Source: a virus (Duplodnaviria > Caudoviricetes). From it: a DNA stretch of 61,570 nucleotides. Shown here one piece after another: positions 54,093 to 57,012 of this stretch; position 1 is the stretch's first letter; the number at the start of each line of letters is the position of its first letter. The position numbers were made by a program, and so were the translations under genes. A model generated the notes under the pieces. That model did no database searches. It was given only the letters and a program-made list of their open reading frames with translations, and had not been told where the DNA came from. The stretch is from positions 1 to 61,570 of IMG/VR virus record IMGVR_UViG_3300036853_000133; one strand, 5' to 3'.

Positions 54093-54704
54093 TCAGCGAT
54101 AGACGCGCAGCTTGTCGCAAAGAGATTTCACGCCAGGCGCCAGATTGGACAGCGCTCCCACCGTCGTCTCTTCGCGGTTTTCGTACCAATGCCCGACCAG
54201 CAGAAGCACAGCGGCACGGGCGAGATATGGCAAGCGCAAATCCGGATCGTCGCCCGTTCCGGTATGGCCCGGCACGTCAAACCCCGCATCGAAGGTCACG
54301 AACACCGTATCGCGCCGCTCATTGAGAAGCGTTGGCCATGAATACGACCGCACGAACGAGACCGTTCCCTTGCCCTGCGTGTTCCGCCGCCACATCCATT
54401 GATCCGCGGCGATCGTCTGTTCCGCGCCGTTCGCATCCAAATATTTGACGCTCTCGACATCGCGCACGGGCGCTGCCGGCAGATCGAGGTCATGGCAGCA
54501 ATGACACGGCCAGCCTTCCATCCGGAACTGAACGGTTGCCGGCGCAAGCCTAAGGTTGGTCTCACTCTCCACGAACTCGATCGCGGTCCTCAGATAGACC
54601 TCGATCATCACATCGTCATCGGTAAAATCAGCCGTGCGCGTGTGCGCCTTGGCTTCCGCCATCGACACTGCAAGTTCTGAGGCCGGTATGATCGTTGCCA
54701 GCAT
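54093..54704 (-). CDS. head-tail connector (gp6-like)
   Basis: VSMAEAKAHTR..DD..; AVLLLVGHWYENRE. Confidence 0.9.
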   Translation of the reverse strand: MLATIIPASELAVSMAEAKAHTRTADFTDDDVMIEVYLRTAIEFVESETNLRLAPATVQFRMEGWPCHCCHDLDLPAAPVRDVESVKYLDANGAEQTIAADQWMWRRNTQGKGTVSFVRSYSWPTLLNERRDTVFVTFDAGFDVPGHTGTGDDPDLRLPYLARAAVLLLVGHWYENREETTVGALSNLAPGVKSLCDKLRVYR

Positions 54705-55317
54705 CGAGCGCAGCCTCAAGTGTTGCGAACGGAAACGCAGTCAGTGCGGAATCAGGATTGGCGTTGAAGACTCTCACACCAAGCACATCAAGATCAGGCG
54801 CCGCTGCATGGAAGGCGCGGCGCCAACGAAACAGATTCGCCTCACTCGGATTGTTCAGGCCGCGCTGGTGACGGCCGTGCCAGTGAATTCCGCGGTCAAG
54901 CCGCATGTCGAAGCCGACAAGGATGATCTTCGAGGCTCCGAACTGAACCACAATATTGAGCGCCTGGAACCCTGAGTTACCGCCATCCCCAACAACACCA
55001 GCACGGGCCGTGAGTATCCGATCCGATTGCTCTTCAACCGTGATGTTGTTCAGCGCCAGAAATTGAGTGCATGCGCCGTTGTCGTTGGTGATCTTCGTTC
55101 CTGAAAACTCCGGAACTCCCTCTCGCGCCTTCCACCAATTGCCGTCGCATCCGTAGAGAACATCAGCCCATGGACACAGCCGCCACGATTCGTTGATGGC
55201 TATAAATCGAGCGCACCCGCGGAACGCTTCGAGGTTTGCCGACGCGGCTGACGGACCTGATCCGACGATGATGGCGCACTCGCCGCGCCAGTCTCGCCAC
55301 CAGCCGAAGCTAAAGGG
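54628..55317 (-). CDS. Maf/DUF115 (sialyltransferase-like fold) domain, expressed by -1 frameshift
   Basis: The open frame reads WRGECAIIVGSGPS..IAINESW..ADVLYGCD..GNSGFQALN..GASKIILVGFD; no ATG/GTG/TTG precedes the motif. Confidence 0.75.
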   Translation of the reverse strand, partial: PFSFGWWRDWRGECAIIVGSGPSAASANLEAFRGCARFIAINESWRLCPWADVLYGCDGNWWKAREGVPEFSGTKITNDNGACTQFLALNNITVEEQSDRILTARAGVVGDGGNSGFQALNIVVQFGASKIILVGFDMRLDRGIHWHGRHQRGLNNPSEANLFRWRRAFHAAAPDLDVLGVRVFNANPDSALTAFPFATLEAALDAGNDHTGLRTCSVDGGSQGAHAHG

Positions 55318-55577
55318 CCGGATGTGGCCGCCTTGTTCTGTGGCGCCGGCTCCATCTTGTTGACCGGCAAGGGCGCCATCTTGTCGGCGCGAATTTCATC
55401 CAGCTTCGACGCAGGAAGCGGAACAGCAAGACCTGCGCGCTCCATCTCGTTAGCGCGGGGCTCAGTGGCACAGAAAAATTCAGAGCCGGCATCAATGTAC
55501 CAGGTTCCGTCCGGCTGCTGGACGCCCTCGCCTGGACTGCCGTTGTAGGATTTCAGGGCCTTCATTCGGATTCGCAT
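55200..55577 (-). CDS. small post-capsid (head-associated) protein; frameshift donor
   Basis: AGGAGG RBS; NKM(A/E)P repeats; C-CCT-TTA at 55311-55317. Confidence 0.75.
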   Translation of the reverse strand: MRIRMKALKSYNGSPGEGVQQPDGTWYIDAGSEFFCATEPRANEMERAGLAVPLPASKLDEIRADKMAPLPVNKMEPAPQNKAATSGPLASAGGETGAASAPSSSDQVRQPRRQTSKRSAGALDL

Positions 55578-55591
55578 TCACGCCTCCTGCC

Positions 55592-55621
55592 AAAATCAGG
55601 TCCGCCCGAAGACGGACCTGA
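55592..55621 (-). terminator. terminator after the major capsid gene
   Basis: TCAGGTCCGTC-TTCG-GGCGGACCTGA-TTTT. Confidence 0.8.
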
Positions 55622-55653
55622 CTGCTTGGTTCATTCGTCGAAACGAATGCGAC

Positions 55654-57012
55654 TTACGTCGTCGCCTGGAAAGTGCCGTAGATGAAGGCTTGCGGCCGAT
55701 AAATCGCGAGGGCGAGCCGCTCTTCCGCGCGGATCGTGACGAGGTTCTTCACGAAGTTGTCGTTGTCTTCGGTCGACACCTCGACGTTCGCGTCTTCGCG
55801 ATCGAACACCTGGGCACCCAGCTTGAACGCGCCGGTCAAGAACTTGGTCACGGTCATTGCCGGGGTTGCAACGACAGGGCGGCCCCAAAGCGTCGGAGAC
55901 GTGACGGTCTGCGGGTTGGTGAAGATATAGCGCCCCTCGTTGTCTTTCGTCAGCTCGATACGCGCCCAGTCGGTCGGGTTGATGACGATGCCGGTAGCCG
56001 GCAGCAACGCCAATTCAGACTGAAGGATCGCCAAACGAATGGCGTCGATGCGGTTCGGAGTTTCCGGCGCGAACGCCGCCGAATATGCGGTCGCCTGCGT
56101 GACAAGGCCGCTGAGATGATTGCCAAGGCCAGAGCCCAGCAGCAACTCGGCTTCCTCCACGTAGGCGAGACCGTAACGCAGACGGCCGTCGATCTGCGAC
56201 TGCAACTGCGGAAGATCGTCCAGGATCTGCTTGGATGCGCGAATCCAGTGCGCGATCGTCGCGACGTTGGCGGTCACGAGCTGATCGACAAGCGTCGACT
56301 CCGGCTTCGTGACGCCTTCCGAGACGACCGCGGCGTTGTTCGTGAACGAGGTCTCCTGCACGTATTGCACCGCATTCGAGTTGGTGCGACCAGGCGTGAG
56401 AAGATCGCGCACCGTCATGCGACGTTCCGGCGGGATGAGTACGCCGGGCTGACGATCCGGGGCCACAACGGCGCCGGTCATCGACGCAGTCGTGATCGCC
56501 TTCACGTCGATGCGAACGCGACCGCGGGCCTTGCTGCTCTCCGCAGCGAACTGCTTGACCTTGTCGTTAGCGACGAACTGTTCGCCCGGGGACATCTCCT
56601 CGATCGTGCGTTCGTGCTTGTGGCCGCCAGCCATCTTCTGTTCGAGTTCAGATGTGCGCGCCTTCAGCTCGTTGATCGTATCCGGCATCTTCGCCAGATC
56701 CTCGATCTGCTTGCGCAGCTCGCCCTGCTCGGCGATGGCCTTGTCGGTCTTCTCCTTGAGGTCGCCCGTGATCTTGTCGCCGGCCTCGCTCTTGGTCTTG
56801 TACTCCTTGCCGAATTCCTTGACCTGGCCGGTGACCTCATCGAGCTTCTTCGTCAGCGCAATGATGTCGTCGGCCGTGAAGCCGCCGCCGCTTCCGTCTT
56901 CGGCCTTGAAACAGATTTGCGGACGGCCAATCTGCCGCATTCCTGTCGGCACGGCACAAAGCCATGCGGCGCCGCCCGACATCAGGGCCGCGTGCAAAAT
57001 CAGATTCTTCAT
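55654..57012 (-). CDS. HK97-fold major capsid protein
   Basis: Coiled-coil delta domain, VSEGVTKPES, IAHWIRASKQILDD, FVKNLVTIRAEERLAL. Confidence 0.95.
   Translation of the reverse strand: MKNLILHAALMSGGAAWLCAVPTGMRQIGRPQICFKAEDGSGGGFTADDIIALTKKLDEVTGQVKEFGKEYKTKSEAGDKITGDLKEKTDKAIAEQGELRKQIEDLAKMPDTINELKARTSELEQKMAGGHKHERTIEEMSPGEQFVANDKVKQFAAESSKARGRVRIDVKAITTASMTGAVVAPDRQPGVLIPPERRMTVRDLLTPGRTNSNAVQYVQETSFTNNAAVVSEGVTKPESTLVDQLVTANVATIAHWIRASKQILDDLPQLQSQIDGRLRYGLAYVEEAELLLGSGLGNHLSGLVTQATAYSAAFAPETPNRIDAIRLAILQSELALLPATGIVINPTDWARIELTKDNEGRYIFTNPQTVTSPTLWGRPVVATPAMTVTKFLTGAFKLGAQVFDREDANVEVSTEDNDNFVKNLVTIRAEERLALAIYRPQAFIYGTFQATT

Follow-up and report, generated by a model that had tools for sequence, protein, structure and literature searches.

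Behind the major capsid gene of a tailed phage, a small gene that we call ORF A is overlapped by a transferase-like open reading frame (ORF) that has no start codon of its own and lies in the −1 frame. Our reading is that the two are joined by a programmed −1 ribosomal frameshift, giving a fusion protein, and on comparative sequence evidence we put the probability of this at about 0.8. The slip itself, and its efficiency, are inferred. The phage is IMG/VR record IMGVR_UViG_3300036853_000133 (Duplodnaviria; Caudoviricetes), and the window is the whole stretch analysed, 61,570 nucleotides (nt). All coordinates of the capsid, ORF A and transferase region refer to the minus strand of the window.

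In the proposed mechanism, ribosomes would start at ATG 55577 and translate the N-domain of ORF A and then a linker. At the heptamer C_CCT_TTA (55317-55311) a fraction of them would slip back one base and go on in the −1 frame. The slipped product would be a fusion of 316 amino acids (aa), with the N-domain joined to a CstII/Maf-like transferase. Ribosomes that do not slip would stop 36 codons later and release the 125-aa ORF A protein. The slip could be made by two tRNAs on the heptamer or by tRNA-Pro alone on C_CCU, the element common to most relatives.

A start-less transferase frame in related loci

ORF A (55577-55200) is the zero-frame gene, running from ATG 55577 to TAG 55202-55200. It is made up of the N-domain (about residues 1-55, 55413-55577, as delimited by an AlphaFold model and by profile matches in relatives), a low-complexity linker (55318-55412; predicted local distance difference test (pLDDT) 60-77), the slip site and a zero-frame tail of 36 codons. 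Upstream, a TGA at 55398-55396 closes the frame −1 to ORF A and sets the upper limit of the shift window; from 55395 this frame reads on without a stop to the TGA at 54630-54628. Among ATG, GTG and TTG codons, the first that it contains is GTG 54951, 148 codons in and far 3′ of the nucleotide-binding motif GSGPS. A first-pass annotation, made from the sequence alone, had reported no such codon between the Rossmann start motif and the in-frame TGA near 55398 and had proposed a −1 slip on the heptamer; the sequence confirms the missing start. The heptamer is also in register, with CCT (55316-55314) as codon 88 and TTA (55313-55311) as codon 89. The −1 frame after the slip (54628-55317) has 227 codons from 55311, and the proposed length, 89 + 227 = 316 aa, is right.

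We compared the locus with 80 loci from species-representative genomes and 80 from IMG/VR, a set of 161 with the window. The GxGPS motif was located in 154 of these; L124, L025, L041, L058, L062, L071 and L079, in which it was not, were dropped. Collapsing 18 duplicate regions left 136 distinct loci. We started a hidden Markov model (HMM) of the N-domain from residues 1-60 of ORF A and refined it by iteration on three-frame translations of the upstream DNA. It matched upstream of the transferase in 59 of the 136 loci. Every one of these matches lies in the frame that needs a −1 shift, with none in frame and none in the +1 relation. The matches precede the junction, so none of them is the transferase read out of frame. 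The start-codon absence that the first-pass annotation had proposed to look for in homologs recurs as well: no ATG, GTG or TTG occurs within 30 codons of GxGPS in 58 of the 59 loci. The exception, L021, carries the N-domain gene separately, about 800 nt away. The zero-frame stop lies past the GxGPS motif in 56 of the 59. The core of the −1 fusion reading, a transferase that has no start and lies −1 to an ORF A-like gene, is thereby found in 58 distinct loci.

Among the other 78 loci (77 without a match, and L021), the transferase has its own start in 64, typically 13-30 codons before the motif, and in the own-start loci that were inspected it follows the gp6-like adaptor gene instead. Several of the 14 remaining start-less loci look like more divergent frameshift cases. 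Of the 120 database proteins listed, four (P0018, P0049, P0065 and P0069) are natural in-frame fusions of N-domain and transferase. To judge from sequence, the family comes in three forms: standalone with its own methionine, which is the commonest, fused through the −1 frame and, rarely, fused in frame. The first-pass annotation had named an independent start or an in-frame fusion in homologs as evidence against recoding. Both exist, in 64 of 78 loci and 4 of 120 proteins, and they touch the reading in part without refuting it. The own-start forms do not adjoin an N-domain gene and so do not refute the fusion, and the four in-frame fusions show that selection favours the fused polypeptide.

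The transferase might instead be translated alone, from a non-canonical start in the −1 frame or by reinitiation coupled to ORF A, with no fusion made. A near-cognate ATC lies at 55323, two codons 5′ of the heptamer, and the predominance of standalone transferases in the family would suit such a route. We consider it improbable. A start is lacking in all 58 loci that adjoin an N-domain gene and present in 64 of the 78 others, a distribution that fits fusion and not weak initiation. The stop of ORF A lies 61 nt past GSGPS, and reinitiation there would lose the nucleotide-binding motif. The natural in-frame fusions argue for selection on the fused protein, and the in-register C_CCT with its rare proline codon, described below, would have no role under own initiation.

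One pair of loci holds both arrangements side by side. The N-domains of L074 (3502-4002) and L036 (278-661) belong to a subtype of their own. L036 combines C_CCT_TTC with a transferase that lacks a start; in L074, where the small gene ends 16 nt short of the motif, the transferase begins at an ATG of its own. The two form a natural pair of split and frameshifted versions.

Cultured phages carry the same layout. By tblastn, the transferase was found in 78 GenBank phage records. Pseudomonas phages D3 (orf6.5/orf7) and PMG1 (gp7/gp8) have a capsid gene, a small N-domain gene, a −1 frame transferase and an adaptor gene, and 'Tetraselmis viridis virus S20' (NC_020840.1; TVGG_00050/00049) has the same gene order. 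Their N-domains match the HMM at E values of 3e-6 (D3), 1.2e-5 (PMG1) and 1.5e-6 (S20), and their transferases are 28-39% identical to that of the window. In D3 and PMG1 the in-register heptamer of orf6.5 is C_CCA_AAG, which precedes the ASGPS motif of orf7, in the −1 frame, by 36 nt; these regions (PMG1, L162, 2355-3073; D3, L164, 1355-2073) are candidate unannotated frameshifts. S20 has an in-register C_CCT_TTG. There CCC TTT G comes straight after a TGA of the −1 frame, which leaves the heptamer as the place of the shift. The annotations treat all three pairs as separate genes that overlap, and they place the starts inconsistently (5813 in PMG1, 5951 in D3, truncated in S20); the D3, PMG1 and S20 records have no ribosomal-slippage annotation. 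The D3 annotation also names PLES_25431, a gene in a prophage of P. aeruginosa LESB58. Because the D3/PMG1 gene pair is annotated inconsistently, the full-length fusion is missing from databases.

The S20 record (locus L161, 2109-3265) names an alga as host; its head module (protease, capsid, N-domain gene and −1 frame transferase) is of the tailed-phage kind. A second sialyltransferase-like gene is present too, as are genes for a glycosyltransferase and a methyltransferase. In phage PAJU2 the transferase follows the adaptor and has its own start. Homologs in PAJU2 (ORF010) and Klebsiella phage Eowyn bear the label 'structural protein', taken here as annotation only. In phage P1 (L165, 1332-2091), pmgO is a transferase homolog that overlaps the 51-aa pmgN by 59 nt, with a glycosyltransferase gene, pmgQ, nearby. 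We rejected this pair as a further case: the layout differs, with pmgO placed +1 relative to pmgN and annotated with a start.

A gene that is in truth an in-frame fusion could also have been split by a single-base error of sequencing or assembly, or by a real mutation that made it a pseudogene. In-frame fusions do exist among the 120 listed proteins, and the window is a soil metagenome assembly that was compared at contig level. The contig of the probable source run is nevertheless identical across the stretch, with a depth of 33.6, and a more distant contig of 151 nt, from another sample, covers 55185-55335 and runs through the junction with 19 substitutions and no gap. Contigs of a second soil sample (X2) cover 54600-54940 and 55372-55700, with the slip site outside them, and X3 covers only 55443-55628. 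The −1 relation, never +1, recurs in the 58 distinct loci from isolates, metagenome-assembled genomes and viral contigs, and in the finished genomes of D3, PMG1 and S20. These loci fall into 52 clusters at 90% and 41 clusters at 70% transferase identity.

The −1 frame is moreover intact over its 227 codons and appears constrained in relatives. For 20 hand-picked pairs, the ratio of nonsynonymous to synonymous substitution rates (dN/dS) was 0.06-0.33 in the start-less frame (19 of the 20 pairs, those with defined dS) and 0-0.51 in the N-domain (17 pairs with defined dS). By this measure both the N-domain and the transferase are under purifying selection. An error or a broken gene is in our judgement barely credible as the source of the frame change.

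The slip site

The first-pass annotation had asked whether the heptamer is conserved in homologous phages. An in-register heptamer of the form X_XXY_YYZ lies in the shift window in 36 of the 59 loci; the two other registers combined have one in 7 of 59. CCCTTTN accounts for 18 of the in-register heptamers. The conservation is sharper for the tetramer. C_CCT stands in register 33-75 nt 5′ of GxGPS in 44 of 58 loci and in the other registers in 0 and 1 of 58. Outside the site, only 10.3% (65/631) of the proline codons of these genes are CCT. In 44 of 52 cases a C stands immediately 5′ of CCT.

What surrounds the tetramer varies. C_CCT is followed by TTN, TCN, ACN, ATN, CCG or CGN, and AA or GG often precedes it, so that the site reads A_AAC_CCT or G_GGC_CCT. 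Its place is taken by G_GGA_AAA, A_AAA_AAC or A_AAA_AAA in distant members. In six loci the window from the −1 frame stop to the conserved W.xW is at most 45 nt long and holds the slip site. Between the window and L096, 18 identical bases run across the slip site, and the transferases are only 54% identical.

These sequences resemble motifs for which shifting has been measured in Escherichia coli, in the part of Sharma 2014 (PMC4066793) drawn on here. There, C_CC.U_UU.A/G/U shifts above 0.1% without a stimulator and is under-represented in genes, and C_CC.U_UU.C gives high-level shifting. V_VV.A_AA.R and H_HH.U_UU.Y are among the best shift motifs, and with a pseudoknot six tetramers, C_CC.U among them, shift clearly above background (Sharma 2014, PMC4066793).

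The common element of the site, C_CCT in the zero frame, is tied to codon register, which points to re-pairing of tRNA. This bears on the possibility that RNA polymerase, not the ribosome, makes the frame change by omitting or adding a base in the mRNA. Transcriptional slippage occurs at long A-runs, and a few distant members (L051 and L073) do have A-runs of seven or more at the site. The window and most other loci have runs of three C and three T, or C3 alone, and runs of three are too short for polymerase slippage. The register bias (44 of 58, set against 0 and 1) again favours the ribosome. Polymerase slippage is therefore very unlikely in our estimate, and the ribosomal frameshift remains the preferred reading.

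Carrier, cargo and the head module

The −1 frame contains the motifs GSGPS, NES, CD, GGNSGF, GFD and HWHGxH, and begins its domain with a GxGPS nucleotide-binding strand-loop at the N-terminus. It matches phrog_4603, annotated as alpha-2,3-sialyltransferase, with an E value of 6.9e-47. Residues 44-231 of the stop-to-stop frame align to profile positions 1-174 of 178, and the profile begins one residue before GSGPS. The AlphaFold model, built from 73 sequences, has a pLDDT of 92.7. In Foldseek searches the best structural matches, at 10-15% identity, were Campylobacter jejuni Cst-II/Cst-I (PDB 1ro8, 1ro7, 2p2v) and Maf (5mu5). Cst-II chain 1ro8_A gave an E value of 3.8e-5, a TM-score normalised to the query (TMq) of 0.54 and 11% identity, and 5mu5 a TMq of 0.57. 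Other top solved neighbours were a Pasteurella sialyltransferase and archaeal MptE/HPPK (8sd5). Cst-II presumably has a GxGPS-like motif comparable to that of the −1 frame domain.

The link to these enzymes lies at the level of fold. The family profile found no relative by sequence among solved structures, and its only matches there (E values of 0.64 and 0.77) were unrelated Rossmann enzymes, which we rejected. The likeness to CAZy GT42, the Cst-II type, is accordingly a fold match at 11% identity, with no sequence-level match to solved structures. Pfam PF01973, MptE-like (DUF115, which includes Maf), scored 20.9 bits against a cut-off of 34.6 (E value 3.4e-4, residues 127-165 only); a precomputed PF01973 match is present in 16 of the 120 listed homologs. 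The Maf/sialyltransferase-like label given in the first-pass annotation thus stands for the fold and for phrog_4603, and falls below threshold for the Pfam family. Unlike Maf and Cst-II, the window transferase is not set among flagellar or lipooligosaccharide genes. A flagellin context of the Maf type was rejected, the neighbours being portal, protease, capsid, adaptor, methyltransferase and glycosyltransferase genes. The −1 frame likely encodes a complete CstII/Maf-like transferase domain, as modelled, with sugar transfer as its putative activity.

The carrier is a small domain of wide occurrence. The window's own ORF A has no Pfam or PHROG match, and it matches the N-domain HMM built from relatives with an E value of 7.9e-12. 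Among 51 aligned relatives, 41 match phrog_2616 and 16 match DUF7302, so by sequence the N-domain appears to be a small beta/alpha domain of the phrog_2616/DUF7302 kind. Its AlphaFold model has a pLDDT of 93-96 per ten-residue block over residues 1-50, and the linker between it and the slip site differs in length among relatives. Against 1.84 billion representatives, the N-domain profile matched 2,216 proteins at E ≤ 0.001, most of them 50-145 aa long with the domain at the N-terminus. Some proteins carry the domain in tandem: P0127, P0149 and P0221 have 10 stretches in 1,976 aa, 5 in 303 aa and 4 in 388 aa. Searching the N-domain alignment against longer proteins by word index gave no match, a type of search that is weak evidence.

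No significant solved structural neighbour of the N-domain model was found with Foldseek. There is a weak, non-significant likeness to the C-terminal domain of lambda gpFI (PDB 2lsm; E value 0.075, TM-score normalised to the target (TMt) 0.67) and a weak fold lead to the GINS B-domain (E value 0.04). The N-terminal domain of ribosomal protein L9 gave E values of 0.044-0.22 by profile against PDB sequences and 0.77 by Foldseek (2hbb), and Pfam Ribosomal_L9_N matched 3 of the 51 relatives, at best with an E value of 0.021. We rejected membership in the L9 N-domain, as neither the sequence nor the fold match was significant. Membership in the gpFI or L9 sequence families was not established for the N-domain. 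The best viral structural neighbour of the model is a 415-aa protein with a GT1 domain (E value 1.3e-3), which suggests that the N-domain carries other enzymes too.

Complex models place the N-domain on the major capsid protein. Residues 1-58 (51-row alignment) were modelled with a mature capsid fragment of 282 residues (44 rows). The interaction prediction score from aligned errors (ipSAE) was 0.76 in three runs, against 0.00 for the best of three controls. The runs agreed in at least 97% of contacts, with a partner pLDDT of at least 88. On the capsid fragment (56502-55657) the predicted contacts fall at residues 114-139, 214-220 and 275. A mark of 0.76 is reached by 58 of 80 solved complexes and by 2 of 110 mismatched pairs, a calibration that holds roughly with custom alignments. 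The ORF A gene stands directly after the capsid gene, a position that can be likened to that of lambda FI; lambda FI lies after the capsid gene and its product interacts with the capsid. The head-binding domain proposed in the first-pass annotation has its support in this model and in the gene position. We lean towards the N-domain docking the enzyme on the major capsid protein, the odds from modelling being a little better than even.

The gene neighbourhood is that of a phage head. Along the minus strand come portal (58995-57748), S78 prohead protease (57751-57029), HK97-type major capsid protein (57207-55657; Pfam Phage_capsid, E value 4.7e-57), ORF A, the long open frame to 54628 and the gp6-like head-tail adaptor (54719-54093; Phage_connect_1, E value 1.9e-6; phrog_442, E value 3.7e-24). 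The capsid ORF is listed from TTG 57207, and its true start is likely the ATG near 57012, directly after the protease stop. The 5′ end of the adaptor gene overlaps the C-terminal tail of the transferase frame, which is poorly conserved. An O-methyltransferase (54189-53308; Methyltransf_3, E value 9.4e-26) and a family-2 glycosyltransferase (GT2; 53311-52187; Glycos_transf_2, E value 2.7e-22) follow, then two ORFs without an assigned family and the head closure, neck and tail terminator genes. The O-methyltransferase, the GT2 and these two ORFs form an accessory block (54189-50316) between the adaptor and head-closure genes. The two ORFs (348 and 284 aa) had no Pfam match at E ≤ 0.001 and no PHROG match at E ≤ 1e-5. 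GT2- or O-methyltransferase-like genes also stand beside the transferase copies of S20 and PMG1.

With GT2 and O-methyltransferase genes inside the head-neck module, virion-directed glycosylation is the simplest reading. Virion glycosylation by phage-encoded transferases is said to have been described in mycobacteriophages by Freeman and colleagues in 2023. Docked on the head by its N-domain, the enzyme would transfer sugar to the virion. That the transferase and the neighbouring GT2 and O-methyltransferase glycosylate the virion from an acidic sugar activated with cytidine monophosphate (CMP) is a tentative proposal. Equally speculative is the wider picture, in which an HK97-like temperate phage lineage that includes D3 would use recoding to place a few transferase copies on the capsid, so that the phage would glycosylate its own heads from a CMP-activated acidic sugar. 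The remaining capsid sites would be taken, or competed for, by the short zero-frame product, which would in this way set the enzyme dose.

Counter-evidence and known systems

Several observations weigh against a programmed frameshift at this locus, or against parts of the fusion as described. C_CCT is absent in 14 of 58 loci, and 6 of 59 have neither the heptamer nor C_CCT. Many of the slip sites are the tetramer only; in the part of Sharma 2014 (PMC4066793) used above, tetramers reach at most a few percent in E. coli and need a strong pseudoknot. The shiftiness data come from E. coli and may not transfer to the host of the present phage. D3 and PMG1 have a GTG 20 codons 5′ of the motif, from which independent initiation is possible. 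The TM-scores of the transferase fold are only about 0.5, and the Pfam MptE-like match is below threshold. Finally, the frameshift loci appear by sequence to be one old lineage and not 58 independent inventions, because they have in common a related capsid gene (42-70% identity). In the capsid alignment of these loci, K66, N253 and E260 of the mature fragment are invariant, and we take their contexts to recall the cross-link lysine, the asparagine and the catalytic glutamate of HK97.

The stems that the first-pass annotation had placed after the heptamer (TGGCGC..GCGCCA and GGCTG..CAGCC) are present in the minimum-energy fold of 55310-55235, as predicted nested hairpins. That fold is no better than chance, at −33.4 kcal/mol with a z-score of −0.84, and 42 of 200 dinucleotide shuffles fold as well or better. 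The stem therefore exists in the fold, and its stimulatory role is unsupported. Over the 95 nt 3′ of the site, the mean z-score was −0.58 in frameshift loci (n = 58) and −0.40 in own-start loci (n = 63; p = 0.35). Stimulatory RNA structure beyond chance was thus found neither in the window nor in the loci as a group. A Shine-Dalgarno-like 4-mer lies 5-19 nt 5′ of the site at 18 of 48 sites, compared with 5, 7 and 11 of 48 control windows, and this enrichment vanishes with 5-mers.

The best-known programmed frameshifts in tailed phages are those of the tail chaperone G/GT and of Ig-like extensions on coat and tail proteins. The lambda-type G/GT −1 frameshift (Levin 1993; Xu, Hendrix and Duda 2004; via the part of review PMC5009743 drawn on here) is similar in being a conserved −1 frameshift in a phage morphogenesis operon that gives a short product and an N-terminally identical long one. 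There, too, the position of the slip site is kept while its sequence varies, and the long form has no start codon of its own. The present case differs in lying in the head module, in belonging to another gene family and in adding an enzyme-like extension of about 210 residues in place of the tail-binding domain of G/GT. The zero frame here also runs 36 codons past the slip, and own-start and in-frame versions of the extension exist.

The window has a candidate of the G/GT type as well. Two overlapping ORFs (48968-48525 and 48702-48130, minus strand), the second in the −1 frame of the first, are followed directly by a 664-aa ORF (47969-45975). This layout is typical of a candidate tail chaperone G/GT frameshift before a tape measure gene.

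Frameshift-added Ig-like domains occur on coat or tail proteins of T3, Lactobacillus A2 and Listeria A118, A500 and PSA, and have been explained by mobile domains that land in or out of frame (Fraser 2006; via the same part of PMC5009743, which also describes T7 10A/10B). As in those cases, an accessory C-terminal domain is joined here by frameshift in some phages and in frame in others. Unlike them, the carrier is a small predicted capsid binder and not the capsid protein, and the cargo has a transferase fold. The direction is uniform here, −1 in all 59 loci, whereas the Ig-like cases mix +1 and −1.

In the literature searched, which did not take in the supplementary listing of five prophage clusters by Sharma 2014 or the GeneTack clusters (Antonov 2013), we found no description of a frameshift in this gene pair. 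The 2016 review (PMC5009743), in the part drawn on, names no enzyme cargo for phage frameshifts, and the words 'glycosyltransferase' and 'phage D3' do not occur in its first 300,000 characters.

The present case pairs a sugar-transferase-like cargo with a small predicted capsid-binding carrier, in at least 58 distinct loci and in cultured phages such as D3 and PMG1. If the frameshift is real, the annotation of a widespread phage gene pair would be corrected, and its slip sites, from C_CCU tetramers to classic heptamers, would offer a natural series for the study of weak frameshift signals. Self-glycosylation of the capsid in phages of Gram-negative bacteria would become directly testable in a laboratory phage. 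If the whole reading is true, it would be the first case of programmed frameshifting that brings an enzyme to a virion, and would give phages a route to self-glycosylation in Gram-negative hosts.

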